Positions 17,643 to 59,100 of a stretch of 64,000 nucleotides of DNA are shown here, piece after piece. The notes under the pieces are model-generated. The model did no database searches. It worked only from the letters and a program-made list of their open reading frames with translations, and was not told where the DNA came from. Within the stretch, counting starts at the first letter, position 1. The number at the start of each line of letters is the position of its first letter. This stretch comes from Candidatus Iainarchaeum sp. GTDB taxonomy: Archaea; Iainarchaeota; Iainarchaeia; Iainarchaeales; VGJJ01. Location: the NCBI GenBank assembly GCA_043803765.1, contig JAZDJQ010000012.1, positions 1,165 to 65,164 on the forward strand. Direction: 5' to 3'. The translations under genes and the position numbers were made by a program.

Positions 17643-19121
17643 ATGGACCGCGTTATTTCCTTTTTCTCGCAACACTCATTAAAGTTGGGCATTCTTTGTG
17701 TGGTCGTCCTTTTCCTCTTCTTCTTCCCCCCTTTTTTTGTGTCAATTGATGAACACCAATACATTAGTAACGCCCTCCTTCTCCAGGAAAATAATCTCAA
17801 GGACGCGAACCCCCTTTTGTATTGCGGTGGCATTGTTTCAGGGGAGGATTATCTCTCTTCCTACCACATCGGAAAGTCGTTCTCCATTATTCCATTCACG
17901 TGGTTTCCCTTTCCTTTTATTATGCTATCAGGGTTACTCATTCACTTACTTAATTCATTTTTCTTCTTTCTTATTTTGGGAAAGATAAAGATCGATAGAC
18001 GGTGGACGCTGTTATTTCTGTTCTATCCGGCCTTTTTGTGGGAGAGCCGCACACTCTTTTCGGAGACATTCGCCTTGTCGTTCCTCCTCGCGGGGGCGTA
18101 TTTCTATCTCGCGAGATCTCCTTCGCGGATGGTCGTGGCGGGTTTTCTTTTCGGTCTGGCCGCGTTGGTGCGGTATGAGACGGTGTTGATTTCTCTTGGT
18201 TTCGCCCTCGCTCTTTTTTGGAATACGCGAAAGGATCGGTTTCACTGGAAGCACCGCTTCGTTTTCTTTGCGGTTGGGGGTTGTGTGGCGGGCTTATTAT
18301 TGTTGGGTTGGAATGCATGGTATTATGGAAATCCATTCTCCACACAGTTTGGTTCTCCCGCCCGTCTCTTCACGTCGTTCCCTCAGCCGTTGTTCTTGAA
18401 TAACCTCATCTCATTTGTGGGAATACTCCTCATCGCGTATCCCCTCCTTCTCGTGTCCCCTTTCCGTTCACATGTCTTGCGGCTCGAGCTCATTCTTGCT
18501 TCTGTTTTCACACTTTTCCTTTTTTCCCAAACCACCAATATTAGCGTTTATCCCTTTCTTTCTCCTCTCACAATCACGGGACGAATGCGGTATTTCATTC
18601 CGCTTTCCGGCCTCTTGCTGATTGTGTATGCGGAGTCCCTTTCTCGTTTGATTCCAGCGGTAACAAAGAAGTTAGGTTCTGCGAATTTTTCCAGAATGGG
18701 AACAGGCATTCTCCTCCTCTTCGTGGCGGGTATTCTCGCGTTGAATGTTATGCACCAAGGGTTGCTCGAGAAGCGCGCCACGGTCTCGGATCAGATTCAG
18801 GGGGCTATTCCTTCCGATGCACTGGTCATTGGATCGAGTGATGATTGTATTTATTTTCTCCCTCTCCTCTCTGGAGATCGGAAGTATGTGAAAGTGGATG
18901 ATGCGATGAAAGATATTCCGCTTCTCATTGAAATGCATGAGGGACCTGTTTTCGTGATGCGTCTGCGATATTCCAATCTTTCAGAAAGTAGTATCCGCCA
19001 GGATGTCATTGATAAGGAGCGTGAGTCCATGGATGCGTTCATTCTCGCGAACGATTCGCATTTGTCTCCGGTGTTTGATTCTAACTCTCCTCATTCATTG
19101 ACCATTTATGCGTGGAAGTAA
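17643..19121 (+). CDS. Polytopic membrane protein, candidate GT-C fold glycosyltransferase (PMT/ArnT-like)
   Basis: About 12 TM helices. An acidic DEH motif follows TM1 directly (FFVSIDEHQY), as in GT-C enzymes. Confidence 0.4.
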   Translation: MDRVISFFSQHSLKLGILCVVVLFLFFFPPFFVSIDEHQYISNALLLQENNLKDANPLLYCGGIVSGEDYLSSYHIGKSFSIIPFTWFPFPFIMLSGLLIHLLNSFFFFLILGKIKIDRRWTLLFLFYPAFLWESRTLFSETFALSFLLAGAYFYLARSPSRMVVAGFLFGLAALVRYETVLISLGFALALFWNTRKDRFHWKHRFVFFAVGGCVAGLLLLGWNAWYYGNPFSTQFGSPARLFTSFPQPLFLNNLISFVGILLIAYPLLLVSPFRSHVLRLELILASVFTLFLFSQTTNISVYPFLSPLTITGRMRYFIPLSGLLLIVYAESLSRLIPAVTKKLGSANFSRMGTGILLLFVAGILALNVMHQGLLEKRATVSDQIQGAIPSDALVIGSSDDCIYFLPLLSGDRKYVKVDDAMKDIPLLIEMHEGPVFVMRLRYSNLSESSIRQDVIDKERESMDAFILANDSHLSPVFDSNSPHSLTIYAWK

Positions 19122-19125
19122 GTGC

Positions 19126-19875
19126 TCACTTCTTCACGGCCTTCAATACCAGGATCATTCCGCTCTCTAATTGCGGGTTCATTTGTTGGTCCACCCAGAG
19201 GATGGGATATAGGATGGGAAATGCGAGCAGGAACCATAACCCAAAATGCAAAACTCCTCCGACGCGCATAACGTAGGTTGAGAGGGGGCTTCCGAAAAGG
19301 TATTGGCTCGCTTCCACGTCGAATCCGGCTTTTCCGAGCATCTTCACCAGTTTTTCTCGCGTATAGTATTGGTTCACAAAATGTTGCATGGCGTGGATTT
19401 TTTTGTATGTCTCATCAAAATGAGGATTGTCCAACGCATCCACGCTCAACACGAATACGCCTTCTTTCTTGAGGACGCGAAAACATTCCTTCAATACTTT
19501 CTGGTCATCCTTCGTGTGTTCAAGTACGCACACGGATACGACTTTATCGAATTTTCCATTGGAAAACGGAAGTTCTTCTCCCATGCCCACGAGGAATGGG
19601 ATAGTTGGATCTTGGATGGTTTGGGCGAAGGCCACTTCTCGGGGGGTGGGTTCTATTCCGGTGGGATTGCACCCCGTTGCTTTCAGGAATCCGCAATAGA
19701 ATCCTTTTCCGCTTCCCACATCAAGAATAGTTTCCCCCGCGTGGGGTTCCAAGTATTTCGTAAGCACATTGAGTTCGAATATGCGCACACAATGGAGGAA
19801 TTGGAGCTTGGCGAGTACGAGTTTTCCAAAGGGCTTGATGAACAGGGTCATACGAGAACAATTTGCCCGCACCAA
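19126..19875 (-). CDS. Class I SAM-dependent methyltransferase with C-terminal hydrophobic helix
   Basis: ILDVGSGKGFYCGFL motif I, VVSVCVLEHTKD, LKKEGVFVLSV. C-terminal TM segment. Confidence 0.6.
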   Translation of the reverse strand: MVRANCSRMTLFIKPFGKLVLAKLQFLHCVRIFELNVLTKYLEPHAGETILDVGSGKGFYCGFLKATGCNPTGIEPTPREVAFAQTIQDPTIPFLVGMGEELPFSNGKFDKVVSVCVLEHTKDDQKVLKECFRVLKKEGVFVLSVDALDNPHFDETYKKIHAMQHFVNQYYTREKLVKMLGKAGFDVEASQYLFGSPLSTYVMRVGGVLHFGLWFLLAFPILYPILWVDQQMNPQLESGMILVLKAVKK

Positions 19876-29561: not shown

Positions 29562-31088
29562 TCACATCAACCAATGGCCATGTTTGAAGCTTCCGGCCAT
29601 GCGGGCAATCTTGACAGCGAAGGCATATCCCAATCCGACGAACACGAGAAAAGGAAAATAAATGAAGGATTTGCTCTCGAAAAACTTGAGACCGCGAGGA
29701 GAGGATAGTTCGAGCTCTCTTTCGGAATCCTTCCACAACCCCGTGACAACCTTGAAGTCTTCAACCGGATCTACAAAAAACTTCCATCTTACGTGGAGGA
29801 ATTCATCGCACAATTTAGTGGGGTGTTTCTTGTGCAATAGAACATCATTCATATGATACTTGAGTCGCTGGTGCGTGTATTTCAATATCGCCCGGACGCC
29901 CTTCGGGGATACCAGCGTGCGATCCTCCGTATACATTTTTGATGCGGTAGGTATTCGGACATATTCAAATCCTAATTCCATGATTCGAAAGGAAAGATCA
30001 GTATCCTCTCGGTAATAAAAAAAATCTTCATCGTATCCGCCAAGGTGATCCAATATCGTCTTTCGGAATCCCGTGCTGGTTCCACCATAATGTCCATATG
30101 CCGAAACCGCTCCTACGCATGGGGAATCAAATCCATTCACCAGTGTTTGCAACCAGTTTTTTTGGGGAACGCAGTCATGATCCATATTGATGACTACCTC
30201 ATGCTTCGCGGCATTGATCCCTGCGTTCCTCGCCTTGCATACGCCGGAGCGGGGTAAAAAAATGAGGGAGATGCGGGGATTTTTTTGGAAGTTTTTTTTC
30301 AACAAGAATGGAGTTTTCCCATCATAGCTTCCATCATCCACCACGATTATTTCGTATTTCCCCTTGAAGTCCTGACGGAGCATTCCATTCACGGCCTTGA
30401 TGAGAGGCTCTCCTCCATTAAGGGTGGCCACGACAATACTGGCCGTTTGAGGGGGCCAAGTCTTTTTCGTTTCGTTTTTTTTCAATCCCACTCCATGTTC
30501 CAAGGCAAGTCGGGTCAGAATATGGGAGATGTATCCATCTTCAACGTCTCCGCGCGCGGCGACCTTTATTTGAGCCTCATGGAGGGTGGTTTTCCATTCC
30601 TTGAGAGACTCTACTACCACCCCATCGCCGCGCGAGGCAATGGTATGGGCGAGTTCAAGCTGATGGTCATCCGTATGTTCTCCGTTCTCCCTGTGTCGGG
30701 GCATGATGATAAGGGGTTTCCCCATTTGCAGTGCGGTGCCAATGTTTCCCTCTCCAGCATGCGTGACAAATAGGCGGCACTCGGAGAGGTTTTTTTCAAA
30801 CGTGGGAATGCTCATGAATGAGGTGACTTTCATTTTGGGGTGAGTGAATGGTGTGTTCCCAGACTGCACCACGACTTCTTCCTGGATGATTTTTTGATCG
30901 ACAAGCATCGCGATTTCATTCAACAATCGGTAGAAGGGTTGAGGATGGGTTCCCACGGAGACAAAAATCATGATTGGTTCCTCGCAAAGATGGATCCGGC
31001 ATACACGCCGGAGGGGTAATATTTTTTGAGGCTTGGCCACTGGTATAGTACGCGATCGGCAAACAGGGAAATGATTCTCCCGCTCCAA
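29562..31088 (-). CDS. Bifunctional Alg13-like (GT28 C-terminal domain) :: GT2 glycosyltransferase fusion
   Basis: Alg13/MurG-C-like MIFVSVGT...THAGEGNIGTALQMGKPLIIMPR, followed after a linker by GT2 IVVATLN...IIVVDDGSYDG...DHDCVP. The probable start is the MIFVSVGT methionine near 30974; the first 38 codons of the ORF would otherwise overlap the Alg14-like gene. Confidence 0.65.
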   Translation of the reverse strand: MERENHFPVCRSRTIPVAKPQKILPLRRVCRIHLCEEPIMIFVSVGTHPQPFYRLLNEIAMLVDQKIIQEEVVVQSGNTPFTHPKMKVTSFMSIPTFEKNLSECRLFVTHAGEGNIGTALQMGKPLIIMPRHRENGEHTDDHQLELAHTIASRGDGVVVESLKEWKTTLHEAQIKVAARGDVEDGYISHILTRLALEHGVGLKKNETKKTWPPQTASIVVATLNGGEPLIKAVNGMLRQDFKGKYEIIVVDDGSYDGKTPFLLKKNFQKNPRISLIFLPRSGVCKARNAGINAAKHEVVINMDHDCVPQKNWLQTLVNGFDSPCVGAVSAYGHYGGTSTGFRKTILDHLGGYDEDFFYYREDTDLSFRIMELGFEYVRIPTASKMYTEDRTLVSPKGVRAILKYTHQRLKYHMNDVLLHKKHPTKLCDEFLHVRWKFFVDPVEDFKVVTGLWKDSERELELSSPRGLKFFESKSFIYFPFLVFVGLGYAFAVKIARMAGSFKHGHWLM

Positions 31089-34954: not shown

Positions 34955-35200
34955 GGGCGGAAAAAAAGTAAAAGAATGAGTGTTGACAGCGCTGCCGCGG
35001 GCCGTTTTCGCCCGGCCGCACCGAAAAACGGGTACCATTGTATGGTACCCCTATCGAGGAAAAAAAGTAAAAGAATGAGTGTTGACAGCGTTGGTGCGGC
35101 TCCGAGGAAAACCCCAGCGCCACGAGCCACGGGTTCTCGTTTCACTTCCGGGTTCGAAATGGGTCCGGGTGGGGCCAAGTCCCTATGACTGTCAACAAGA
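34955..35200. repeat. Intergenic structured element: 31-bp perfect direct repeat x2 with nested hairpins and a distal inverted partner. Candidate ncRNA or recombination site
   Basis: aaaaaaagtaaaagaatgagtgttgacagcg occurs at about 34961-34991 and 35060-35090. Hairpins cgggc-N7-gcccg and gggtacc-N7-ggtaccc lie between the copies. gccgcacc (copy-1 unit) and ggtgcggc (copy-2 unit) are complementary. tgttgacag pairs with ctgtcaaca at about 35188-35196. A GGTTCGAAAT T-loop-like motif sits at about 35150 without a full cloverleaf. Confidence 0.3.
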
Positions 35201-39929: not shown

Positions 39930-41141
39930 GTGAATGTGAGGGGGATGATTTTCATGAGCTCTTTTTTTGACCGGGTGAATCGATTGCAGGATAAGGGGGA
40001 AAGCATAGGATATACGACCACGGGGTCGGTGAATTATCATCCGTATGACGCTCAACCTGTTCGTTTTCATCCTGCAGAGAAAACAGAACAACAGCTCAAA
40101 GATGAGGAAGCCCTTCAGCAAATGATTCAGGAAACCCATGCCAAGATTCGCGTGATTGGAGTAGGAGGGGGAGGAACAAATACCGTACAGCGTTTAAGTG
40201 AAGTAGGATTGGAAGGAGGTGAAATGTTTGCCGTTAACACGGATGCACAAGCATTGTTGCATATTCATGCTCATCGGAAGATTTTGATTGGAAAGCAACT
40301 CACTCGAGGGTTAGGTGCAGGATCGGACCCTTCTATTGGAGAGGCGGCTGCTCGTGAGAGTGAGGAAGATTTGAAAGACTTGTTGAGTGGTTCGGATTTG
40401 GTTTTTATTACATGCGGAATGGGCGGTGGAACGGGAACGGGTGCTGCTCCTGTTATTGCGAATATTGCAAAAGCACAGAATGCACTTACGGTTGGAGTGG
40501 TTACGCTTCCTTTTACGGTAGAAGGAAGAACACGAATTGAGAATGCATTAGAAGGATTAAACCGTTTGCGTAAGGAAGCGGACACGGTTATTATTATTCC
40601 GAATGATAAAATTTTGGAGATTGCTCCTGATTTGCCGGTTAATGCTGCATTCAAAGTGGCGGATGAAGTATTGGTGAATGCGGTAAAAGGAATAACGGAA
40701 ATGATAACACGTCCCGGGTTGATTAATTTGGATTTTGCTGATTTGCGCACCATTCTTTCCAAAGGAGGAGCTGCCCTTATTGGATTAGGTGAAAGTAAAG
40801 CCGATAAAGCGAGTGATGCTCGTGCCCTTGAAGCAGTAGAGAACGCACTCACTTCTCCATTATTGGATGTTGATATTTCAGGTGCGAATCGTGCATTGAT
40901 TAATGTGGTGGGTGGGAGCGATATGACGTTGCGGGAAGCGGAAATGATTGTAGAAGTAGTGGGTTCACGCATTGATGCGAATGCCCATATCATTTGGGGG
41001 GCCATGATTGATGAGAATATGCCCCGTTCGCATATTCAGGCGATGGTGGTGATTGCCGGAGGAAAGATTCCTTTCCTTGATTCTCCTGTAGCGGCAGGGG
41101 AAAGTAATAAATTAGATTTGGATATTGAATTCACTGAGTGA
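39930..41141 (+). CDS. ftsZ: Cell division GTPase FtsZ
   Basis: IRVIGVGGGGTNTV, GMGGGTGTGAAPVIANIAK (tubulin signature), NVDFADL. Probable start at MSSFFDR near 39954. Confidence 0.9.
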   Translation: MNVRGMIFMSSFFDRVNRLQDKGESIGYTTTGSVNYHPYDAQPVRFHPAEKTEQQLKDEEALQQMIQETHAKIRVIGVGGGGTNTVQRLSEVGLEGGEMFAVNTDAQALLHIHAHRKILIGKQLTRGLGAGSDPSIGEAAARESEEDLKDLLSGSDLVFITCGMGGGTGTGAAPVIANIAKAQNALTVGVVTLPFTVEGRTRIENALEGLNRLRKEADTVIIIPNDKILEIAPDLPVNAAFKVADEVLVNAVKGITEMITRPGLINLDFADLRTILSKGGAALIGLGESKADKASDARALEAVENALTSPLLDVDISGANRALINVVGGSDMTLREAEMIVEVVGSRIDANAHIIWGAMIDENMPRSHIQAMVVIAGGKIPFLDSPVAAGESNKLDLDIEFTE

Positions 41142-41164: not shown

Positions 41165-41356
41165 ATGGCATTCAACATTGGGGAATGGTTTTCTTCTTTC
41201 ATTTCGTCCACCCAGAGGATTCTGATTGTGAGCAAAAAACCAGATACCGCCAAATTTATGAATATGGCAAGAATTACCGCCATTGGGTTAGTAATATTAG
41301 GCGCCCTTGGGTATGCGATTGAGCTTATTACTTTCTTTATTCGGAATGCGGTATAG
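41165..41356 (+). CDS. secE: Preprotein translocase subunit SecE/Sec61-gamma
   Basis: 63 aa, a single C-terminal TM (ITAIGLVILGALGYAIELI) preceded by KKPD...F. Conserved position upstream of spt5. Confidence 0.75.
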   Translation: MAFNIGEWFSSFISSTQRILIVSKKPDTAKFMNMARITAIGLVILGALGYAIELITFFIRNAV

Positions 41357-41385: not shown

Positions 41386-41865
41386 TTGTGGGGGTTCTTT
41401 TTCCCTACAAATAGGGTTTTTTTTATGATTTATACCATTCGCACGACGGTTGGACAGGAATCAATGGCAATAGACATTCTAACGGCGCGGGCCAAGAAAG
41501 AGGGGCTGGAGATTTACAGTATGGCATTGATGCCCGGACTGAAAGGATACGTTTTAGTTGAAGCCGACCACGAAAACACCGTACAGCGTGCCATTGCGGG
41601 AATTTCCATCATCAAAAGCCGTGGTGTTGTGGCAGGTCATGTAAAGATTGAGGAAATGGGCACAATTCTATCAAGCAAGCCCTTAATGGAAAGCATTAAG
41701 CCTGACCAGAAAGTAGAATTGATTGCCGGCCCCTTCAAGGGGGAAAAAGCACGCGTGATTAGAGTGAATGAGACAAAGGAAGAAGTCACGGTGGAATTGC
41801 TCGAAGCCACCGTTAAGATACCCGTTACGATTAAAGCGGAACAAATACGCGTAATAAAAGAGTGA
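41386..41865 (+). CDS. spt5: Transcription elongation factor Spt5 (NusG homolog)
   Basis: NGN domain (IYTIRTTVGQE...GYVLVEA) plus KOW (IAGPFKGEKARVIRV). Probable start at 41425 (MIYTIRT). Confidence 0.8.
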   Translation: MWGFFFPTNRVFFMIYTIRTTVGQESMAIDILTARAKKEGLEIYSMALMPGLKGYVLVEADHENTVQRAIAGISIIKSRGVVAGHVKIEEMGTILSSKPLMESIKPDQKVELIAGPFKGEKARVIRVNETKEEVTVELLEATVKIPVTIKAEQIRVIKE

Positions 41866-41956
41866 ATTTTTCTTTTTTTCAAATAGTCCTTTTTTAAGCC
41901 TTTTCAAGTGTTTCAATCGTACTGTTACGCAAGTTTGCTTCTGGGAGAAAAAAGGT

Positions 41957-42436
41957 ATGCCTGAAATAAAGTTGATGATTGATGGGGGAAAAGCCACAGC
42001 AGCCCCTCCTATTGGGCCTGCACTTGCACCGTTGGGGTTGAACGTGGGGAAAATCGTTCAAGAGATTAATGATAAAACAAAGAGCTTTGCAGGGATGAAA
42101 GTTCCCGTGGTACTGGACATTGACAAGAATAAGAATTACACAATTACAGTAGGAAGCCCTCCCACGAGTGCATTGATACGAAAAGAAGCCGGTGCGGATA
42201 AAGGAGCAGGAAATCCCAAAACGGAAGTGAAGGGCAATCTTACTTTTGACCAGGTAAAGAAAATTGCCGAAATGAAGATGGGAAAGTTGAATTCGTACAA
42301 ACTGCGTTCCGCATGCAGGGAAATCATTGGAACGTGCAACACCATGGGAATAACCATTGATGGGAAGCATGCCAAAGCGGTTCAATTAGAATTTACCGAC
42401 GGAAAATTCGACGACCAGTTTGCATCGTCTCGATAA
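41957..42436 (+). CDS. rpl11: 50S ribosomal protein L11
   Basis: KLMIDGGKATAAPPIGPALAPLGLNVGKIVQEIN is a canonical L11. Confidence 0.9.
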   Translation: MPEIKLMIDGGKATAAPPIGPALAPLGLNVGKIVQEINDKTKSFAGMKVPVVLDIDKNKNYTITVGSPPTSALIRKEAGADKGAGNPKTEVKGNLTFDQVKKIAEMKMGKLNSYKLRSACREIIGTCNTMGITIDGKHAKAVQLEFTDGKFDDQFASSR

Positions 42437-42504
42437 GCATTCCCATGTTTGTACCTTCATGTTTTTGAATAGGAAAAGCACGTTTCTTAGTTGAGTGAGA
42501 CATT

Positions 42505-43584
42505 ATGAAGGCAGTATTAGTTTGTGCTGGCACTCTCCGTAAAAATATGGCAGGGGTTGAGCAGTCTGTTTATTATCTTGCTAAATTCCTTCAGAAGAAA
42601 AAAGTGGATGTGGAAGTATATTGTGTTACAGATAATCCAATCGGAAAAACAACATATGATACCATTCCCATCACGGAATTCCCTGGAATCATTTTCAATA
42701 AAGCGTTTTATTTTTCACTTCCATTATATTTTGCACTTGCGAAGGAAAATCATGATGTAATTCATGCATATGGAACGAATTCTCTCACTACTCTTGCCGC
42801 TCTTGCGGCAAAGAAAAAAGGACAGTGCATGGTGATTACCGGGGCAAGCTCTATTTCTTCTTCTCCCTTGAGGAAAAAACTGCACCCGTTAATGTATGCA
42901 ATGTATCGCTTCTTGGCAAAAAAAATAGATTCCCTTATTTGCGTGTCAGCGTATGAGTATGAATTGTTTAAGCAGAATATTCCATTGCCCGAAGAGAAAT
43001 ACGCTCGCATTCCAAATGGTATTGATGTGGAAAAGTTTGCTTCTATTAAAAAAAAGGTGCAAAAACATTCTATTTTAACCGTTGCACGTCTGGTGAAGCA
43101 GAAAGGAGTGCATCGCCTTGTGCGTGCTCTCCCATTGATAATGAAAAAATTCCCAGATGCACACTTATTCATTGTGGGGGATGGAATTGAAATGAAAAAT
43201 TTGCGTGCACAAGTGGAAGAAGAAAAGATGTCTTCCCACGTAACATTTGAAGGATATATTCAGTTTGAAAACTTAGATCGGTTAGCTCAATTGTATTCAA
43301 CATCTCATGTTTTTTCATTGATGGCCGACTCGGAAAGTCAAGGTTTGGTGTATACGATGGCCATTGCCTCACGAACGATTATTGTAGCCACTCAATCAAG
43401 TGCGATGATGGACTTTATTCAAGCAAAAGTGGCATTAGGAGTGAAAAACCCGGATGATTCAAAGGAAGTAGCAGAGAAAATAATGATGGCATTTACGCAT
43501 CCTTTTCCAAAGGGAGAAAATAAGGAACTCGTTTGGTCGTGGGACCGGATTGGGGGGGAAATACTTAAATTATATGGGAAATAA
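42505..43584 (+). CDS. GT4-family glycosyltransferase inserted between rpl11 and rpl1
   Basis: GT-B fold. N-domain MKAVLVCAGTLRKNMAGVEQSVYYLAKFL. C-domain ...FIVGDGIEM...SLMADSESQGLVYTMAIASRTIIVATQ. Confidence 0.7.
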   Translation: MKAVLVCAGTLRKNMAGVEQSVYYLAKFLQKKKVDVEVYCVTDNPIGKTTYDTIPITEFPGIIFNKAFYFSLPLYFALAKENHDVIHAYGTNSLTTLAALAAKKKGQCMVITGASSISSSPLRKKLHPLMYAMYRFLAKKIDSLICVSAYEYELFKQNIPLPEEKYARIPNGIDVEKFASIKKKVQKHSILTVARLVKQKGVHRLVRALPLIMKKFPDAHLFIVGDGIEMKNLRAQVEEEKMSSHVTFEGYIQFENLDRLAQLYSTSHVFSLMADSESQGLVYTMAIASRTIIVATQSSAMMDFIQAKVALGVKNPDDSKEVAEKIMMAFTHPFPKGENKELVWSWDRIGGEILKLYGK

Positions 43585-43704
43585 AGGACGATTGTCCAAG
43601 ATTGTGCGTATTTTAAGCGTGTTTTATTCTCACTCCCTCTCCATTTATGGCCATTCTTTTTAAGCATTCCCCCGCGGAATTACATTACTTTCTCATTCTA
43701 TTCC

Positions 43705-44424
43705 ATGAAGAGGAAGCCGTCCAACCACTTGAGAGTGGGAGGTTTTTCGATGGAAAAAAAACAAGTCTTGAATGCGTTGCAGCAGTTGCGCCAGTCGGCA
43801 AAACCGAGGAAGTTCAAGCAGACGATTGATTTTACGATTAATTTCAAAAATATTGATTTTAAGAAAGTGGAAAACCAAGTCGATGTGGATGTAGCATTAC
43901 CCAATCCTATTGGAAAGGGCGATGGTAAAGTTCTGTTGTTTGTTCGCGATAAAGAATTTGCTTCTCAAGCAAAGGACATCGTAGACCATGTCATGATGGA
44001 AGATGAAATTAGCAAGCTTAACAAGAAACAGATTGCCGAAATAACCAATCAGTATATTGGATTCCTCTCCGAGGGACCCGTCATGTTGACGGTTGGAAAG
44101 TACTTAGGGCAGACGCTTGCACCAAAGAATAGAATGCCCAAGCCCGTAACAATGGATATTAAACAATTGCAAACGATTGTTGCGCGTTTAAAATCGGTAG
44201 TGAAGATTTCCAACCGTAAAGGAAAATTCATGCCCCTTGTTCACGTTTCGATTGGTAAAGAAGAAATGCAGGATGAGGCGATTGCTGAAAATGCGGTTGC
44301 CGTGTATCAAGCAGTTCTCCCTGCAATTGGTAACAAGCCCGGAAACGTAAAATCGGTATTAGTCAAAATGACCATGTCTCCTCCTATTGTGATTGGTGGA
44401 AAGCAAGGGGGCGCATTGGCATGA
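43705..44424 (+). CDS. rpl1: 50S ribosomal protein L1
   Basis: ...RKFKQTIDFTINFKNIDFKK...LPNPIGKGD... Probable start at MEKKQV (43750). Confidence 0.9.
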   Translation: MKRKPSNHLRVGGFSMEKKQVLNALQQLRQSAKPRKFKQTIDFTINFKNIDFKKVENQVDVDVALPNPIGKGDGKVLLFVRDKEFASQAKDIVDHVMMEDEISKLNKKQIAEITNQYIGFLSEGPVMLTVGKYLGQTLAPKNRMPKPVTMDIKQLQTIVARLKSVVKISNRKGKFMPLVHVSIGKEEMQDEAIAENAVAVYQAVLPAIGNKPGNVKSVLVKMTMSPPIVIGGKQGGALA

Positions 44425-45269
44425 CAACGCACACGCGTAAATGGAAAGAATCCGAAGTCGCTCGCCTCACCCAGTTGGCAAAAGAATATCCTGTTATTGG
44501 AGTAGCAGACTTGAAAGGTTTCCCTGCTAGTTTGCACGGTTCACTAAAAGTAAAGCTCGCAGGAAAAGCCGTGTTGACTGTTTCAAAACGCAAAGTGATT
44601 CAGCATGCTTTCAGGAACGCAGGAATTGATTCTTCATTAGTTGACAATGTGAAAGGGTCAAGTGCTGTTCTTTTCACCAAGACGAATCCATTTGAATTAT
44701 TTTCATTAGTTAAACAATCATCCGGAAAGGTTTCAGCGAAAGAAGGACAATTAGCCCCTGAAGACATTGTGATTCCCGCCGGAGATACGGGGTTGCCTCC
44801 CGGTCCTGCATTATCCGACTTGAAGGGTGCCGGTCTTAATGTACGAGTACAGGGCGCCACGATTGCAGTGGTGGAAGACAAGGTTGTAACGAAGAAAGGG
44901 GAGCCTGTCACCAAGCCGGTGATTAGTGTGCTTGGAAAGTTTGGAATAAAACCAATCAAGTTACGGTTATCTCTTACGAATGTGCTTGAAAATGGAACAA
45001 TCTATCCTGCCTCTGTTCTTGACATTGATGAAGAAGCCGTGTTCAACCAGTTTGTTAGAGCGGAACAACAGGCATTCAATCTTTCAGTAAACGCTGGAAT
45101 TTACACGGATAAATCCATTCCTGTTATTCTGGGGAAGGCATTCCGCGAGGCAAAAGCAGTAGCAATAGAAGCCAATGTTATTACATCCGAAACCGCGGTC
45201 GAAGTGTTAGGAAAGGCGCAGCGTGCTGCGGTTGAAATCAATTCCCAGCTTAAGGAGGACACCCTGTAG
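44421..45269 (+). CDS. rplP0: 50S ribosomal protein L10 / acidic ribosomal protein P0
   Basis: KWKESEVARLTQLAKEYPVIGVADLKGFPASL... P0 family. Start overlaps the rpl1 stop. Confidence 0.85.
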   Translation: MTTHTRKWKESEVARLTQLAKEYPVIGVADLKGFPASLHGSLKVKLAGKAVLTVSKRKVIQHAFRNAGIDSSLVDNVKGSSAVLFTKTNPFELFSLVKQSSGKVSAKEGQLAPEDIVIPAGDTGLPPGPALSDLKGAGLNVRVQGATIAVVEDKVVTKKGEPVTKPVISVLGKFGIKPIKLRLSLTNVLENGTIYPASVLDIDEEAVFNQFVRAEQQAFNLSVNAGIYTDKSIPVILGKAFREAKAVAIEANVITSETAVEVLGKAQRAAVEINSQLKEDTL

Positions 45270-45326: not shown

Positions 45327-45629
45327 ATGGAATATGTGTATAGTGCGATGCTCTTGCATTCCGCAAAGAAAGAAGTCAGCGAGGCGCATGTCACGAAGGT
45401 GTTGGAAGCCGCGGGAATCACGCCGGATTCCGCCCGCGTGAAGGCACTCGTTGCATCTTTAAAGAACGTCAACATTGACGATGCAATTGCGAAAGCAGCC
45501 GTTTCGGCCGCGCCGGTTGCCGCTGCACCCGCAGCTGCAGGAGTAGCCAAAGCCGAAGCCAAGCCAGTAAAGGATGAGAAAAAGTCCGAAGAAGAAGCAG
45601 CCGCCGGGTTAGCCAGCTTGTTTGGATAA
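45327..45629 (+). CDS. rpl12: 50S ribosomal protein L12 / P1 stalk protein
   Basis: [19 protein letters not shown]... with an Ala/Pro hinge and acidic C-terminus ...[13 protein letters not shown]. Confidence 0.85.
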
Positions 45630-45690
45630 ATTTGCTCGTATAGAAAAAAGGGGGATGGGGCGCTGTGCTCCATCTTTCTTCTTTTTCTAT
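45630..45690 (+). terminator. Oligo-T terminator after rpl12
   Basis: tttcttctttttctatatcttgttttttttacctttttt directly follows the rpl12 stop. Confidence 0.4.
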
Positions 45691-48095
45691 ATCTTGTTTT
45701 TTTTACCTTTTTTCTTTCCTTTTTTCGCAGGCCATTTTTTAGTTGGTTCGTTTTCTTTTATCGTCTTTTTGGTCAGGAGGGTTTCATTTTTGGGTCTCTT
45801 TTCGTTTCCTCTCAATTCGGCGGATGCTTTCCTCAATTTTTTTCCTGTTTCCCTCATCTGTTGGGAATAATTCCCTGATATTTCTTCAAATGCTTCTTTT
45901 GAAAGCAGTCCGTTTGCATGTTGATAGGCTGCATGGCGTAATCCTTGTTTAGCTGCAAATAGTCGTGCTTCAAGTTCGTCTACCTGCTGTAAGATGCGTG
46001 AGTTAATGGCAGGAAGTGTTACATCCAATTCATTTGGTGCATCCGCACGTTTACCCCAATCCATTTTTTGGATGCGCCCGCTATAGGATACGATTAGCAC
46101 GACTGCCAGGAAGAGAACGATTATTCCTAATATCCATTCTAATGGTATGGGATTGCCATTCGATGTCTGGATGAGGACGCTTCCTTTTCCTTCGCCATTA
46201 ATCGAAATGGGTATTGTTCCTCCATTTCCATTGCCAACGGGGGAGGCAATTCCATTAAGTAAAGTAAATCGTGATTCGGGTAGCGTGGCGTAGTACTCTT
46301 GCACGTCTTTTGTTACCTCGTATGTGTTTTCAGCCAACAATATGAGGGATAGACCGCTGCTCAAACTGCTCGCAGCGACTGCTCCTTGATTTTTTTCCAT
46401 GTAATAATTTGCCGAGTTAAGGTAATACTTGGCATGATCCAAATAGAGGTTGGCCCACCCGTATTGCGTTGGTTTGTCTTTTAATTTAGTCTCCAATTGG
46501 GTTATTTTAGTTTCGAGTGTTTCTCGAACGTCTTTTTCTCCATCGGATTCGATAAGGATGGCATTAACGAGTGCTAGTGCGGATGCCGCGTTCATGGCAG
46601 CACTGAGGTGGTGCTCATTCAACTTGTCCATTTTTGCCGCGTTTAGTCTTCTTTCGGCATCAGCTCCTGTTCCATCTTGTATAAGGGTGAGTCCGTTCTC
46701 AGCATTCGTTAGAAAATCAGTATAATAATCCGCAAAAGGTGTCTGTGTCTTTAGTCCCTTCGTGGATTTTTCTACTCCTACGTTATAGAATTCGGAGCTT
46801 GATTCGTACCATGCGCGGGCAAACTCATAATCTTGTACGCGTGAAACCGCTTGAGCGTGCTCCGCGTCCTGTGTTGCCGCTTCAATGATTGAGATTTCCT
46901 TTAACTCTTCTAATTGTGTTTTTGCCCATGTTAATCTCTGTTGTGCGGCGATGTACCATTCTACTCCTTCGATAGGAACCGTCTTGTCGAATATTTTTTG
47001 CTGTTCCTCAATCTTGTCCAATAACGTATCCACCCATTCTTCTAATAGCCCATTCTCCATGTTGATTAGTTCAGAATTGTTTGATACATCTTCCACAAAG
47101 TAGGCATTCACTCTCGCGAGAAAAGCAAAGTTTCCTGCCGAATAGTGATACCCGTTCTGGGTGAGTAATTCTGCCTCATTGGCTGTTTTTTCGGAGTCGC
47201 TCACGCTGCGGGATAATACCTCGATTAATCCCGCGTCATCTAACAGGGTGTGATTCAGGGCATTCTGTGCTCGTTGGGTGGCATCTCGTGTTTGCTGGAT
47301 AAACAATGTATTGAGTTTTCCTAGTGCTTCGGCGGATGGGGAAGGAACTATCTTTTCTGGAATGTATACGGATTCTTCCGCCTCGGCTGTTTGTGAAATA
47401 TCAATACTTCCAATATCGGAATACGCGTATTTTAACACGTCATCCAGATTGCGTGTTTCAACTATTTTCATCCCCCACTCTTCCAATGCGTAATCGGGTA
47501 GAAAAATATTTTTTACTCCGTCGCTCATTTTTACGACCTGTCTTGATTCTCCTTCCGGAATTAGAAATAGTTTGACATTGCCTTTTGCTGCTTCTTTTGA
47601 TTTTTCGAAAATGCCTCCTACGGGTCCTACTTCTCCGGTGTGGGTGATGGTTCCAGTCAATCCCACGTTGGAGGGAATTTTTTTGTCTTGGAGTGAACTC
47701 ACAACAAGTAATGCCATTGCGCTTCCCGCGCTGGGTCCATCCACTACGCTTGCTTCTGAATCAATGGAGAAAAAATAATCATACTTGTCTACGTCGGGCG
47801 AGTAATTCTTGGCTAGTTTCACGGCTATTTTTTCCGTGCTTTGAGTGGCCGTTCCAACTAATGGACCGGATACGCTTGACCATACGGTTCCATTTCCGGG
47901 GACTAATTTCAGCATTAACTCTGCATCTAATGCCGTTCCGTCGGGTGCTACGGCAAAAACAGTAAGGGATTGATTGGGAATAATGGCATGTGCCGGTACG
48001 CTGAACGCAAGGACTCCCAGCAATGCCATCGCAAAAAGCAGGTATTTTCTCATTCTAAAAAGAGCGTTTTTCCCGTATATATAGTTTCTTCCCAA
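45687..48095 (-). CDS. Extracytoplasmic Lon-protease (S16) domain protein with signal peptide, long helical region, C-terminal TM anchor and K-rich tail. No AAA+ module
   Basis: Signal peptide MRKYLLFAMALLGVLAFSVPAHA. Lon proteolytic domain VDGPSAGSAMALLVVSSL...LTGTITHTGEVGPVGGIFEKSKEAAKGNVKLFLIP, with the catalytic Ser in DGPSAG and a downstream Lys. C-terminal TM (LEWILGIIVLFLAVVLIV), then KKWPAKKGKKKGKKNKI. The track start is TTG; the probable real start is ATG at about 48053. Candidate TATA tatatata lies about 25 nt upstream of it. Confidence 0.65.
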   Translation of the reverse strand: MGRNYIYGKNALFRMRKYLLFAMALLGVLAFSVPAHAIIPNQSLTVFAVAPDGTALDAELMLKLVPGNGTVWSSVSGPLVGTATQSTEKIAVKLAKNYSPDVDKYDYFFSIDSEASVVDGPSAGSAMALLVVSSLQDKKIPSNVGLTGTITHTGEVGPVGGIFEKSKEAAKGNVKLFLIPEGESRQVVKMSDGVKNIFLPDYALEEWGMKIVETRNLDDVLKYAYSDIGSIDISQTAEAEESVYIPEKIVPSPSAEALGKLNTLFIQQTRDATQRAQNALNHTLLDDAGLIEVLSRSVSDSEKTANEAELLTQNGYHYSAGNFAFLARVNAYFVEDVSNNSELINMENGLLEEWVDTLLDKIEEQQKIFDKTVPIEGVEWYIAAQQRLTWAKTQLEELKEISIIEAATQDAEHAQAVSRVQDYEFARAWYESSSEFYNVGVEKSTKGLKTQTPFADYYTDFLTNAENGLTLIQDGTGADAERRLNAAKMDKLNEHHLSAAMNAASALALVNAILIESDGEKDVRETLETKITQLETKLKDKPTQYGWANLYLDHAKYYLNSANYYMEKNQGAVAASSLSSGLSLILLAENTYEVTKDVQEYYATLPESRFTLLNGIASPVGNGNGGTIPISINGEGKGSVLIQTSNGNPIPLEWILGIIVLFLAVVLIVSYSGRIQKMDWGKRADAPNELDVTLPAINSRILQQVDELEARLFAAKQGLRHAAYQHANGLLSKEAFEEISGNYSQQMRETGKKLRKASAELRGNEKRPKNETLLTKKTIKENEPTKKWPAKKGKKKGKKNKI

Positions 48096-53149: not shown

Positions 53150-56100
53150 TCATATGCACGTCTGGTTTGGAGTGAGTTTACTCATTATTTGGTCCATGCT
53201 GTTTGCCCCCATTGCCTGATAGAGCGCGTCGTCATTCCAATAAAATAGGGCTTCTACTCCATTATCATATACGCATACATCTCCTTTTGCTACCAAATCA
53301 AACACATCTTGGATGGAATCGACTACCTGACTGGGATTGTTATGTTCAACGGAAGATACTCCGTCTAAGAATTGGGTGGTAGTGAATGTAGGATAGTTGC
53401 TCGTGGCGAATTGGATTCCTTGTTTTTCCGCGCTTAGTGTGAAACTTCCATCTGTAGGAGTGTAAAACAATGTGTGAAGGTACGCGTTTCCACCCGTTGA
53501 GGCATACCCCCAGTCCTGCGCATACACGTATTGCCAATTAGTTAATTGTTCTTCGTTGTTAGCCCTTCTATCTGGTTTTTGATTGAATGCTATTGCACTA
53601 TCCATTCCTTCATAGTCCATGCACCCTTGAACTCCATCCCAATAATTGAGGGTTTCTCCTGTAATGACGGGTTCGCCTCCATCGGACAACGAATAATAAA
53701 CTGAAAATGGTTGGTTGGTTTGGGCGTGGGATACTTTGGCGATTAATGGAGTGGCAATGGATGGGGAAAATGCCATCGTGTAATCCCCCATTCCGGTAGG
53801 GGCGTTCACGTATAGCAGTCTTCCTCTTGTTTCAGGACGAGTATTGAGTTGGGTGATGCCCCTTTCAACCAGCGTGTGCAAAACGAATGAACCGTCTTTT
53901 TGCATATCATCATGCGTCTCCACGAAGCTGTCATTAATCTTAATGAACCCATTTTCGTGCGCATATTCCATCCCGTATCCTTCCCGTTGCATCACTCCAT
54001 TAACCAGTCCTACTTCCCCATCAATAGGAATGCGGTAGAATGGGCTGTTGATGATAGGCGTATCAAGTAAATAGAACTGGATTTTTATCTTGGCTTTTGG
54101 TTTTCCTCCCAAATCAAAGAACTGCCAATCATCCCCTTCTATTTCTACATCCATATCAATCGAATATTTTCCCGGAGTGTGAATATAGGTCTGTTCCCCA
54201 TACTTGTATACAAATTCGAGCGCGTTTTTCTTCTCATAGAACCTCCTATATCCCTTGTGTTCATTCGACCCTACAAACCACGGGGGCGCATCCGCGAATG
54301 ATATTTTGTTGTAATAATTCGCAAAGTCGTCCTTGAAGTCATCCGAGTACCCATCTGCCATAAGGTTGGCCGTGAAGTGAGTAAGCTTGTTGAGCGTTTC
54401 CACGTTTGGAACCGAGGGAGTGAAGATGACGTTCTTTTCGTTCACATATTGTCCGAATTCCTCATCATCTCCATCAATCCATTGATTTAGTGCAGGCTTC
54501 CCTCCTAATAGTTTGGTCGACTTGGGATACTCAGGGCAGTGCCCTATCGTCTTATTGACGTAATTATTCACGTTGACACTAAGGAATTGGACGACAGGGG
54601 ATTGCGTTCCATCGTCGGGTAATCCGAACACATACATGATATCGTATTTTTCGGCTGCAAGATTGGGGATACTGCATACGTATTCAGCCGTTTTCCCTGT
54701 ATCGATTGTTCCCACGGAAGTGCAGGAGAGGTCAATCGGCTTGGGTGCATTCTCATAATCGGTGGATAGGCTCTCCGCGAAAAGGTATATGATCATGTTC
54801 CCGTCGACGGGCATGAGAGTCCTGTTTTCGATGCTCGCAGTAAAAGTAATTTCGTTTGTTTTAGTGATGGAATAACCAATCCCTTTCACTCCTACTTTCT
54901 CATCCTTGATTATTTTGTTTACTTGTTTGAATACGGATTGGGGTTGAGAATTAGGGTTTGTGGGGCAATCAAACGTGTAATTGTTCGCTTCAAGGAATTC
55001 TTCTAATGCACGTAATCTTTTCATCAAGTCGATGTTGAATTGGGTGGCATCGCAGTATATTCCATTGGCGTTTTCTGCATCACAGGCTCCCATCGGAACG
55101 CCGTATTCCTCATCCCATCTCCAATTGTATGCTATTTTGGGTAGTATTTCTTCCCCAGTATTCCCTTGTATCGTTCCAGCGTTGCATGCTTCGGCATTGA
55201 CGTAAGGGAATGGCAGTGTTTGAGTGTGCTCGGCCGTTTTGAATTTGACATGGAATTTTTCTTCTCGTATGGTATCTTCCGTTCCATCACAACTCCCATG
55301 GTCTTCTTCCGGTCCAATCTTGTAGTTCTGGAATTCCCCGTTTACACAACTTACTTTCCCTTCTCCTTTGTGTTCCGCGTCCCCATGAATGTGTTCAGTG
55401 GCGCGCAGTGTAACAACCCCGAAAAGGGGAGTAGTGTTGGCATACCCTTCGATGTTAGTGAATCGCGCCCCTACGCTCTGTATTTCCTTCCCTTCGCCTT
55501 CTTCATCATCTCCATCTTCTTCTGTATCATTGAATATTTCTTGTTCATTGAGAACCCATTTTCCTTTGAAATGGGTGGAAATGTTAGAGGATAATTGGAC
55601 ATTGATCGCATCGGGTGGAAGAACGACTTCTTCTCCTTCCGTGATTCCCTTTAGATGAATAATATAATCATCCATATCCGTCACGGTGAAGAACATCTCG
55701 CACAGGTCCACGTCTTCCGCCATCATCATCGACACCAGTATTGCAACAATGATTCCAATGATGATGCATACCGGGCACCCCAGCATGAATGATAGTATCT
55801 TCGTGAGGATAGGTCCTGCTCCTGTCATCCCTCCAATCGTGCTGCCGAGTGAGGAGAAGGCATACGCTCCAACATTGGCAGCAGTCTGTGTAGCGGCGGT
55901 GGCAGTGGGTGCCAACGCGGCGCTTGCCAATTGGGGAACAATATAGCTGCTGGCTAATTGGGTCGCGGCCGTGGATACGGCGGTTCCGGCGGCCTGTCCC
56001 ACCCAGAATCCTTCATCCGTTTGTTGCGAGGATGTCATCCAGTGGCATACTGCGGCAGTGACGGATACTTTTTCTTTGTATAATCGGTTCAGCACGATCG

Positions 56101-59100
56101 TGGTGTCTTCCGAGTCTTTTCCAAAAAGGACGAATGCGGTCTTGGTCATGTCAAATGCCCTATCTTGAGTTGCTCTCATCTTGACATCCAGTCTTGCAAT
56201 TCGCTCGAATGCGTTCCCCTGAATTCGGGCATGAACCGTTACATCGTATGATCCTGGAAGAGTTGCTTGCGTTCTCTTGATTGTGAATGTATTCGTTTTC
56301 GTGATAACTTGTTTCAGTGGTTGGACTTCGATTGCTCCTTTGGGTGCTCCTCCCGAGCATCCTTCGTTTCCCTGTTCGATGCAGAAAGCGACTTCTACGG
56401 GTGTCTTACATGCGGTTACATCAATGAGGAATGTTGCTTTATTTTCTCCCGAGCGGATGGTGACTCCTTTTCCTGGTTCGGGTGCGATTTTCACGCATGA
56501 TTCAAGCGTATTGACTCCTACTTGTATTGGAATGGTTTTGCTAACGAGGATGGGGGCTTCCGGGTTTCCTATTTCTCCTCCAACCGATAGAGTGAATCCC
56601 CCCGTTTTCCCTGAAAGCGGCTTGTAGGGGATAAACGTAAGCGAAGCATCGTATTCTCCTTTTTCTATTGATAGGAATTGCGAAGCGAGGGGAGTGTATG
56701 CTCCTTTCTGTAGTACTTGGGAATAGGTTTCTTGTGTTTCAGGGTCCTTTATGCTCAATACGAGTTGTCCAAGCGCATTTCCACTCCAATCCACTTTGGC
56801 TTGGATGTGACGCATCTCAACACTATCTCCTCCAACGATACAATCGTGTGAAAGAGTAAATGGAATTGTTCCTTCGTGTTCGAATGGTCTGATTTCGAAT
56901 CTTTCTCCTTCTATTCCATTAAGCACGATTCCCCCATTCTGGCAATCGGACAACGGAGCAAGGTGGATGGTGAGAGGGATATTCGCTAAATATTTTTGAT
57001 TCGTGTAGCTGTTCACCCCTTCCACGAGAATGCTTCCGCTGACTAATTGTGTTTGGTTGATTTTTACCACGGGTTTGGTTTGGGCAAGAATGAAAAACGA
57101 TTCTTTCTTTCCCGGTGCTATTTCCATCCCTTCTTGTTGCTGGATGTTTTCTTTCATTTCTTTTTCATCGAGCCATGCATGGGGTGAAAGTTGGAGTGAC
57201 ATTCCTGAAATAGTGAATGGGCTTCCGGCAATGTTTTGAATGGATAATTCTTTCACTTCCCTTGCATTCCCTACAAGGGGTAAATTAAATATTATTTCAG
57301 CAGGAGTCAACTGAAAAGGAGAAATGATGACGGGCAATACAATACTGGCGTCCGCGTAGTCTTTCTTTTGAAGAATGATAATGTAGTTTTCCCCGGGCCA
57401 TCCTCCCGTGATCGTAGCAGACGCACTTCCGTCGTTAATCGTATTCGTTTGTCCCCATAAAATGGTAGTGCCATCCGTTCCTTTCTGATAGAGGTTGACG
57501 AGCACTCCTTCGATTGGTTTTTCCATTGCATCGTTGACGTAAATCGTGATCGTGGTGGGGGTGAAAGGAAAGATTCCTGTTACACTACTATTCACTTTCA
57601 TTTCTTGCAGGGATTCCACTCCAAGTGCAATGGATGATTCGGCTACTATTTCCTCTTCATCGTACACGCGTAATACAAAATCGGCTATCCCATTCTGTGC
57701 GGCATGGAATGTAACATTTCCAATTATCCATTCCCCCGTGGAAAGGCTTCCTAATGAAATCGTATTGGGTGAAATGGGAATGGTAATTGTATCCATTCCT
57801 TTTTCTTCTATTATTTCTCCATTCGGGGTCTGGAAAAAATAGTTCGTTATCTTAATAGGAAACTCGTCTCCAATTATGTTCCCTGTTAATCGGATGTTTC
57901 CATTGGTTCCTTTTTTTCCCGCTTGAATAATGAATGAATAGGTGTATTCTCTCCCCGCTATTAGAGTGGAATGAGGACCCAATACGACTCCTTCATCCTG
58001 ATCCAATAGTGTTTCTCCTGCGATGCACACAATATCCCCGCAATTCCATTTTTCTCCAAAAAATAGTGTTTGCACATGCGAGTCGGCATAGAATTTGTTT
58101 TTTTCCGATGTGTTTTCGGCTAGTTCAAGCGTTGCATCGGCAGGACTCCGAATAAACAATCCGTCTTCCGTTTCCCCCCATGCACGATAATAGAGAGGAG
58201 TGTTTCCTCCTAAAGAAGCTGAATCATTTACATATAGTTGAACGTCAATCCAATAATCCCCACTCGTATCGCTATTCCACGTCCACTCTCCCCATTTTCC
58301 ATCTCCATTCGTCACATGCGCGGAATCATATTCCCATCCGTTCACTTGGGAATAGGTTGTTCCTTTTTCGGTTTGACCCGTGCTTCCGATTAAATCGTGA
58401 ATGGCAATAGTGTCCGTATCCAATAGTCCATCGTATCCTTCTCGTACGTGGATTCCTATTTTTTTCCATTTTCCTTGTGGAATCGTCACGCGGAATTTCC
58501 CCGTATAGTGTCCTCCCGGTTTCAGCATGGACACGCTTTTTCCCGTTAGGGTATCTCTCCACCCTTCCAATTGTACCTGAACATCACTCCCAATCTCTTC
58601 TTTTCTCAAAAAGGGTTTAATCATTATTTTTTTACCCGGAATTAATGAATAGTTTGTTGTGGTGAGGGAAACATACCCCGGAGCGGACGCTTGGATATAT
58701 ACGTATCGGTCTGCTTTGAACACGTGCGTAGCAATCCCCTTTTCGTCTGCTTGAACGAGGCATGTTTCATCCGGACAATCCACATCAAAAAGAGTGTGAA
58801 ATAACACCGTAGCAAAAGGGATTATTTTTCCAAGGGAATCCACTACTTCTACTTGAACAGTGGATTCTCCTAGCGTGAGCACCACATCCACTTGGGTGGG
58901 TTCTCCTTTTTCTAAGAAAAAGGGCGGTGTTTCCACGTAGCTATAATTTCCCTTCATAACACTTACTGCGTAATTTCCTGTTGGAATTCCTTTCACGCTT
59001 GTTCTTCCCTGCGCGTCCGTTGGAGTAATCGTGATTCCAATGGGTGTTCCCGTTCCGGTAATATCAATGAGTTGAACGATTGCCCCCAAAACGGGCATTC

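Follow-up and report, generated by a model that had tools for sequence, protein, structure and literature searches.

Introduction

In Methanococcus vannielii, rplA, rplJ and rplL are co-transcribed as an operon of their own that is autoregulated by L1, and rplK is not co-localised with them (PMC3616713; PMC2175363). The mRNAs with which L1 interacts carry a stem with an internal bulge (a G-A plus an unpaired A) directly before rplA (PMC3616713). Here we describe the corresponding gene cluster in a stretch of 64,000 nucleotides from contig JAZDJQ010000012.1 (the window; all positions are counted from its first letter), which derives from a metagenome-assembled genome (MAG) of Candidatus Diapherotrites/Iainarchaeum, a DPANN archaeon. 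In this cluster, a gene for a glycosyltransferase of family GT4 lies between the genes for ribosomal proteins L11 and L1.

Bacterial O-antigen and capsule loci hold variable polysaccharide cassettes between conserved housekeeping genes. An earlier note on the window, made from its letters alone, had described the GT4 gene as an insertion within one universally conserved ribosomal operon, with the unusual read-through expression that this would entail. Comparison with related genomes suggests a different reading. A GT4 of a glycan pathway has probably resided for long, as a trait of this lineage, in a permissive gap between operons, where glycan cargo continues to turn over among close relatives.

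Results

A GT4 gene lies between L11 and L1

On the forward strand of the window, between 39.9 and 45.6 kb, the gene order is ftsZ-secE-spt5-L11-GT4-L1-P0-P1, the neighbours having been identified by Pfam and NCBIfam. The GT4 gene is an intact open reading frame (ORF) encoding 359 amino acids, running from ATG to TAA at 42505-43584 (+). The extent, strand and placement given for it previously were exact to the base, and its identity was upheld by Pfam, NCBIfam, AlphaFold (AF2) and Foldseek. Upstream, the L11 gene (159 amino acids; 41957-42436, +) matches Pfam Ribosomal_L11_N and Ribosomal_L11 together with NCBIfam NF002232 (202 bits, above the cut-off), and is separated from GT4 by 68 bp (42437-42504), in keeping with the spacer of about 70 bp reported before.

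The downstream spacer requires correction. The 120 bp quoted in the earlier note reach only to the first ATG of the L1 ORF (43705), whereas the true start of L1 is almost certainly the ATG at 43750, because a GGGAGG Shine-Dalgarno sequence lies at 43737-43742, the NCBIfam alignment begins at residue 16 and an MEKxQ start is found in all relatives. The L1 gene would thus occupy 43750-44424 (+) and the spacer would measure 165 bp. L1, P0/L10 (282 amino acids; 44421-45269, +; Pfam, NCBIfam) and the P1/L12 stalk protein gene (100 amino acids; 45327-45629, +; TIGR03685, 115 bits, above the cut-off) are contiguous on one strand, and the P0 start overlaps the L1 stop codon by 4 nt.

Orthologues occupy the same position in related genomes

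A word-indexed protein search returned only 16 homologues of the GT4 protein at E ≤ 1e-10, with genomic context recovered for most. The window GT4 had no exact match in the contig index, and context was taken from the homologues. A P0-profile scan of GTDB species genomes supplied 80 additional loci (L numbers below denote loci and P numbers of four digits denote homologous proteins). All 11 homologues whose contig was examined lie in the stalk-cluster or glycan-island context of this clade.

Ten other genomes, which the window brings to eleven, carry orthologues here that share 51-67% identity with the window GT4 (L001/L018, L003/L004, L005, L006/L022, L019, L092, L093, L094, L095 and L096); they lie directly downstream of L11 and/or upstream of L1. 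The exact gene order of the window is kept over 11 kb in L003/L004. The insertion is therefore not singular. The earlier note had itself allowed that carriage by close relatives would make the arrangement a lineage trait, and this is largely what the synteny check revealed. In seven of the ten relatives a NAD-epimerase gene in reverse orientation stands between L11 and GT4, and in six a GT2 gene stands just 5' of L11; this GT2 lies between spt5 and L11 in L006/L022, L092 and L093 and at the edge of a glycan island in L001 and L005, while in L095 the contig breaks off within the gene upstream of it. Most common is the order spt5-GT2-L11-epimerase(-)-GT4-L1, of which the window would be a reduced form with GT4 alone remaining. 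Orthologues of the relatives' L11-flanking GT2 and epimerase were absent from the window, where the best GT2 matches reached 25-31% identity and no epimerase matched at E<1e-8. GT4 is followed immediately by L1 in eight of the nine genomes (window included) whose contig reaches L1; in L094 a kinase gene lies between them.

In a neighbour-joining (NJ) tree the gap-resident GT4s are monophyletic, with L019 nearest to the window and P0013/P0014 basal. This tree broadly agrees with one built from L1, P0, P1 and L11. The monophyly and the rough agreement of the trees indicate that the placement is old and has been largely vertically inherited.

These data bear on the possibility that the gene is a recent horizontal insertion, a mobile-element remnant or the product of an assembly chimera, as its base composition might suggest. 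The GT4 gene has the lowest GC content of the genes analysed (0.391; GC at third codon positions (GC3) 0.356), and it is bracketed by two perfect copies of an 11-nt direct repeat, TAAGCATTCCC (42434-42444 and 43661-43671). The same arrangement is present, however, in independent assemblies from different samples, which also excludes the chimeric contig that had been considered in the earlier note, and the divergence of the orthologues points to an old placement. Furthermore, the repeat copy on the downstream side falls within the conserved TATA region of L1 (see below). The window has no tRNA, and the genes and ORFs scanned, neighbours included, showed no integrase or transposase domain.

A check of GC and codon usage against the neighbours, which the earlier note had proposed, gave a similar answer. 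Although GC is slightly low (0.39), synonymous codon usage of GT4 is nearer to a housekeeping set (ftsZ, secE, spt5, L11, L1, P0 and P1) than to a set of genes from the glycan island of the window, by +0.033 per codon, a small effect. The codon choice of L11 and L1 also favours the housekeeping set, and that of all but one island gene does the opposite. GC3 values similar to that of GT4 occur in ftsZ, KsgA and one island GT2 (2373-3395, -; GC3 0.349, unusually low for the island), which is not an orthologue of the relatives' L11-flanking GT2 (27-31% identity). Small as the effect is, codon usage argues against a recent foreign origin, and we consider recent insertion, remnant and chimera effectively refuted. 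Besides the 11-nt repeat, a stretch of 26 nt within the GT4 coding sequence (43033-43058) repeats the L11 leader (AAGTTTGCTTCT...AAAAAAGGT; 41931-41956) at 85% identity. Both repeats are probably due to chance, although they may be traces of past rearrangement.

The content of the L11-L1 gap varies among close relatives

The gap was compared within the clade, in genomes whose P0 shares 66-77% identity with that of the window. In L012, L020 and L023 (the complete genome CP064981.1) it holds no gene and measures 213-235 bp. Elsewhere it contains a DUF1801 gene positioned downstream of a GTCC motif (L015), an ORF for a 175-residue protein of unknown function (L014), a different GT4 (37% identity) with a B12-radical-SAM gene (L021), or a 5.4-kb cassette of methyltransferase, epimerase, methyltransferase, GT4 (45% identity, -) and 524-residue membrane protein genes (L016). 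In L013 a sulfotransferase gene lies just 5' of L1, at the contig edge. Even sister taxa differ: L012 is empty where L003 carries GT4, and L023 is empty where L022 carries epimerase and GT4.

In more distant Iainarchaeia, L11 and L1 are mostly adjacent. Across 60 distant DPANN loci with at least 2.5 kb of upstream sequence (from L031-L091, mostly Woesearchaeota/Nanoarchaeota), 41 had no L11 gene in the 2.5 kb or more before L1 and only 7 had one. Judged from these gene orders, the L11-L1 junction is a natural, often broken seam and, in this clade, a hot spot for glycan-type cargo. As a separate observation, one distant Iainarchaeum (L025:4702-5268) has a GNAT Acetyltransf_3 gene and small ORFs between L11 and L1; the Acetyltransf_3 Pfam family includes ribosomal-protein acetyltransferases.

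Such variability raises the possibility that the L11-L1 gap, and also the spt5-L11 gap, is an exchange locus. Extending the explanation given above, the ribosomal-protein and spt5 genes would serve as homology arms for recombination of glycan cassettes between lineages, with GT4, epimerase, methyltransferase, radical-SAM and membrane-protein modules being swapped, and the outcome would be a diversification of the surface glycans of these probably host-associated DPANN archaea. At least eight gap contents among such closely related genomes, nearly all of the cargo being glycan-related, together with the differing sister pairs and flanking L11 proteins that are 78-87% identical across the clade, speak for exchange. 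So does the location of P0015 and P0016, divergent members of the same subfamily as GT4, in islands of genomes whose gaps lack GT4 (the contig of L012 also carries P0016, and the assembly of L014 includes P0015). Conversely, the GT4 clade roughly tracks the species tree, as fits vertical descent and loss, and the exact insertion point varies, the DUF1801 gene of L015 lying beyond the GTCC motif. On balance, exchange between lineages appears rather unlikely as the explanation of this locus.

Conserved modules precede L11 and L1

Spacers were compared across 12-14 related loci (12 for L11 upstream, 14 for L1 upstream). Upstream of L11 a TTTWTAAG box about 65 nt 5' of the gene is followed by CTGTTAC and then by GCTTCTAGGAGA. 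In the window these correspond to a TATA-like box TTTTAAGC at 41892-41899 (+) and to leader elements CTGTTAC at 41922-41928 (+) and GCTTCTGGGAGA at 41937-41948 (+), each kept in the 12 loci. The elements are constant whether a spt5, GT2, HAD(-) or unknown(-) gene precedes, and L11 thus appears to have its own candidate promoter. T-runs follow L11 in every locus compared and also follow spt5. All four TTTTAAGC octamers in the 64 kb lie within spacers of the cluster, one before spt5, one before L11 and two before L1, and none of the four precedes GT4. With 3.1 expected the octamer is not over-represented, and only its placement is informative.

The approximately 110 nt before L1 are conserved far above their surroundings, whichever gene precedes (GT4, L11, or a radical-SAM, membrane-protein, DUF1801 or sulfotransferase gene). 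The putative proximal promoter module of the L1 operon (43657-43699, +) begins with a TTTTTAAGC box at 43657-43665, recognised by its conservation, in which the T-T-T-x-T-A-A core (TTTWTAA) is invariant or near-invariant. About 25 nt after the box follows a conserved TACTTTCTCATTCT (43686-43699, +), at a distance where an archaeal TATA box would lead one to expect transcription to begin; a start is placed here from spacing only.

Immediately before L1, an invariant ACCACTYGAGAGTGGGAGGTT hairpin that includes the Shine-Dalgarno sequence is present in the 14 loci. For the leader (43710-43749, +; hairpin 43725-43738), RNAalifold predicted 12 pairs in two helices, an outer one of 7 bp and an inner one of 5 bp, with an asymmetric internal loop between them and a YGAG tetraloop at the tip. 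One side of the internal loop has six nucleotides (GUCCAA in the window; the consensus is GCCAAC) and the other has GA, and the GGGAGG sequence falls inside the structure. From this conservation and predicted fold, the leader is a well-motivated candidate for an autoregulatory hairpin bound by L1. Its GUGGGAG sequence may mimic the L1 site of 23S rRNA. A scan for sigma-70 promoters and intrinsic terminators, which is unsuited to archaea, gave counts at shuffle level, and its sole useful output was the hairpin at 43725-43738.

About 150 nt upstream of L1, a conserved motif GTCCAAGATTGTGC is followed by a distal TTTTAAGC box (43594-43618, +). The exact GTCCAAGATTGTGC-TTTTAAGC pattern occurs once in the window; most close relatives have it before L1, and away from that position it is seldom seen. 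The motif GTCCWARAWTNTGC (43594-43607) directly follows the gene preceding L1 in L006, L012, L013, L016 and L019-L023, usually with a T-rich, TTTTA-like run after it; in L015 it lies just downstream of L11, and L021 has a second, degenerate copy right after L11. This element may be a distal promoter or a regulator-binding site.

Since the modules before L11 and L1 are conserved independently of the upstream gene, GT4 would lie between transcription units and not inside an operon. The premise of one universally conserved operon is hence countered by a separate box and leader before each of the two genes and by the lack of L11 at most distant loci, as well as by the T-runs after spt5 and L11 and by the location of rplK in M. 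vannielii (PMC3616713). Of the proposed insertion into a conserved operon, the placement of the gene stands and its membership of the operon is not supported.

In the L11-GT4 spacer itself, a T5 run followed by GAATA (TTTTTGAATA; 42462-42471, +) is a candidate weak terminator of L11 and/or a TATA-like box of GT4. ATGTTTTTGAAT is also found 29-40 nt 5' of the GT4 start in L019, where a divergent epimerase gene precedes, and TTTTTCAAT at the equivalent position before GT4 in L018 and L092. We infer that TTTTTGAATA is a candidate GT4 promoter, possibly doubling as a weak T5 terminator for L11. The terminator-like signals flanking GT4 are weak, T5 upstream and T4 downstream, and some read-through from L11 is plausible because the T5 run is the only terminator-like signal after that gene.

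The GT4 enzyme has probable partners in the glycan island

The GT4 ORF matches Pfam Glycos_transf_1 (PF00534; 8e-23, 81.2 bits versus a cut-off of 26.4) and Glyco_transf_4 (PF13439; 4e-21, 76.1 bits versus 28.5), and the same protein sequence has been deposited from a 'Candidatus Diapherotrites archaeon' MAG, labelled a GT4 family protein. With 15 homologues at E ≤ 2e-76 and 66 invariant alignment columns, it is a real gene and not a chance ORF. The AF2 model (mean predicted local distance difference test (pLDDT) 89, predicted template modelling score (pTM) 0.85) adopts a two-Rossmann GT-B fold. Its top Foldseek matches are MshA, PimA, PimB', BshA and PglA (E 1e-13 to 1e-17), with TM-scores of about 0.7-0.78 (maximum 0.78, normalised by query length), and PimB', PimA and BshA ranked best in a profile search of PDB sequences. 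No transmembrane or hydrophobic segment was predicted.

The EX7E donor-site motif is typical of the GT4 family, though not universal. Here (43333-43359) the first glutamate, E277, is invariant, and the position of the second, which aligns with a Glu of PimB', is Met285 in all aligned subfamily members except P0016. The NCBIfam scores for Agl16, BshA, PelF, EpsE and the others being far under the cut-offs, none of their specific functions could be transferred, and a weak match to the Pfam GT4-conflict model (24.5 bits versus a cut-off of 26) was not counted towards a role in defence.

The heavy investment in glycosylation that the earlier note had remarked upon is evident. A glycan and N-glycosylation island occupies positions 1-34921 (1-35 kb) and ends in an AglH-like phosphotransferase and AglB/STT3. 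It starts with B12-radical-SAM, GT4 and GT2 genes followed by many nucleotide-sugar (NDP-sugar) enzymes, and encodes in all several GT4s, GT2s, NDP-sugar enzymes, methyltransferases and an LPG_synthase_TM protein, with six epimerase/dehydratase genes, four B12-binding radical-SAM enzymes and a SPASM radical-SAM enzyme. The B12-radical-SAM enzymes suggest C-methylated or otherwise unusual sugars. The island also encodes a flavin amine-oxidase-like protein and an Alg13/14-like (Glyco_tran_28_C)-GT2 fusion (29562-31088).

Within the island, a polytopic membrane protein (17643-19121, +; about 8-9 hydrophobic segments, a soluble C-terminal part and no Pfam hit) adjoins an S-adenosylmethionine-dependent methyltransferase (19126-19875, -). 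Both have counterparts in the L016 gap cassette, where the membrane protein is about 32-33%, the methyltransferase 49% and the GT4 45% identical to those of the window. The membrane-protein family is divergently paired with a GT4 homologue in L007 and L008 also, and P0015 and the L016 GT4 homologue are each divergently paired with a 490-524-residue protein that has no Pfam hit. The cassette matches in L016 point to a three-gene module that is split in the window, with GT4 in the gap and the membrane protein and methyltransferase in the island. We therefore regard the latter two as probable functional partners of GT4.

The nearest out-group homologues, P0015 (46%) and P0016 (39%), lie in ordinary glycan/lipid clusters without ribosomal genes, among LPG_synthase_TM, B12-radical-SAM, GT2 and methyltransferase genes. 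GT4 thus probably belongs functionally to the glycan island. From the glycan-island homologues, the L016 module and the AglB-bearing island, we infer a cytoplasmic sugar-transfer step in the assembly of a surface glycan or N-glycan.

These neighbourhoods also bear on whether GT4 might be tied to translation, either by glycosylating a stalk protein or translation factor, or by a need for growth-rate-coupled co-expression with L1-P0-P1. The adjacency of GT4 and L1 has been kept in eight of nine genomes despite 33-49% protein divergence, codon usage resembles that of the ribosomal-protein neighbours and the flanking terminator signals are weak, all of which such a link could explain. It would not readily explain why sister genomes lack GT4 or have unrelated cargo in the gap, why the nearest homologues reside in glycan islands beside membrane-protein, methyltransferase and LPG_synthase_TM genes, or why epimerase and GT2 accompany GT4 in most relatives, as in ordinary glycan pathways. 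Moreover, the presence of GT4 makes no difference to the L1 promoter and leader. A link to translation is consequently very improbable.

Other features of the neighbourhood

Upstream of L11 lie ftsZ (39930-41141, +), secE (41165-41356, +) and spt5 (about 41425-41865, +), each identified by Pfam and NCBIfam. A 5S rRNA gene (35080-35196, -; Rfam, 58 bits) sits between the glycan island and a DUF655-KsgA-ftsZ block. Apart from this gene, an Rfam scan of 35-49 kb returned only a chance RsmY match, and no other rRNA family matched within that range.

The P0 protein of the window ends ...KEDTL, without the acidic C-terminal factor-binding tail, which P1 carries (...GLASLFG). Among the 80 GTDB loci scanned, mostly DPANN, the canonical P0 tail (...AAAGLGLLF) was present only in the Methanothermococcus locus L044. 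In about 50 of the 80, P0 stops within about 20 residues, and the remainder have longer, charge-rich tails without the motif or are cut by the contig end.

Directly 3' of P1 and convergent with it, a protein of about 800 residues in which only a Lon_C proteolytic domain was identified is encoded at 45687-48095 (-). Its position is kept in all close relatives (L001-L023) whose contig extends that far, with a DUF8412/OmdA gene between P1 and the Lon_C gene in several. Further downstream, a giant ORF of 2410 amino acids occupies 53150-60382 (-).

Discussion

The explanation that we favour, and consider probable, is that of a long residence of GT4 in the spacer between two independent transcription units, a monocistronic L11 and an L1-P0-P1 operon. 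The spt5-L11 and L11-L1 spacers of this Iainarchaeia (Diapherotrites) clade would tolerate and accumulate glycan-biosynthesis cargo, comprising GT2, NAD-epimerase, GT4, methyltransferases, a B12-radical-SAM enzyme and a sulfotransferase. The PimA/MshA-like enzyme would take a sugar from a nucleotide-sugar donor and attach it to a glycan intermediate, lipid-linked or other, probably working with the membrane protein and methyltransferase of the island. Its expression would come from its own weak promoter at TTTTTGAATA plus some L11 read-through, and that of L1-P0-P1 would be kept independent by the operon's own promoter and L1-binding leader. A literature search for Diapherotrites together with glycosyltransferase returned nothing on this arrangement.

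Several points weigh against this explanation. Our trees are simple NJ trees from few markers, from which ancestral placement with repeated loss is not cleanly separable from repeated gain or exchange, and the tight adjacency of GT4 and L1 leaves room for a functional or regulatory reason. The promoters, the terminators and the L1-binding role of the leader are predictions from conservation and spacing alone; the inner leader helix, being invariant in 14 of 14 loci, offers no covariation support, and a ribosomal-protein leader family was absent from the Rfam E-value scan of 35-49 kb. As regards the enzyme, Met285 in place of the second EX7E glutamate may make donor binding atypical, and no NCBIfam equivalog scored above its cut-off for GT4, all scores being far below.

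The finding is a real yet fairly ordinary quirk of gene order. In archaea the stalk cluster is no single, inviolable operon, and a gene lodged at the L11-L1 seam implies no exotic co-expression. What gives the locus its interest is that the L11-L1 and spt5-L11 seams repeatedly host glycan genes in one DPANN clade, which makes it a compact, well-anchored place to follow how genes turn over and surface glycans diversify in archaea that have not been cultivated. Two by-products may be mentioned: a set of putative promoter and leader elements, among them a hairpin through which L1 is likely autoregulated, in a phylum for which we know of no experimental promoter data, and the hint of a three-gene module of GT4, polytopic membrane protein and methyltransferase.

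In comparison with described enzymes, the window GT4 shares with the retaining GT4s of the PimA/PimB'/MshA/BshA/PglA type the two-Rossmann GT-B fold and the Glyco_transf_4 and Glycos_transf_1 domains. It has the same conserved Gly-rich, Lys/Arg and first-Glu donor-site residues as PimA/MshA-type GT4s, which are likewise soluble or peripheral without a transmembrane segment. It differs in being only 12-22% identical to the solved structures listed and in the Met that its subfamily has at the second EX7E glutamate. Sulfolobus Agl16 (NF041010), a GT4 of archaeal N-glycosylation, is collinear over the full length (residues 16-358 versus model positions 15-349 of 352), and AglB and an AglH-like phosphotransferase are likewise present in the genome context of the window; with 53.4 bits against a cut-off of 575, however, the window GT4 is not an Agl16 orthologue.

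At the level of the locus, the L1 operon of M. vannielii (MvaL1) offers the closest parallel, with L1-P0-P1 contiguous, L1 and P0 overlapping and L11 a separate unit. The stem/internal-loop/stem RNA predicted directly before the L1 start in the window covers the Shine-Dalgarno sequence and fits the published description. In the window, however, L11 is still nearby, whereas in M. vannielii it is elsewhere, and the leader is known here from prediction. The O-antigen and capsule loci of bacteria likewise place variable glycan genes, differing among close relatives, between strongly conserved flanks. The flanks here are ribosomal-protein genes, however, and the cassettes are small (0-5.4 kb), with exchange suggested by analogy to those bacterial loci.

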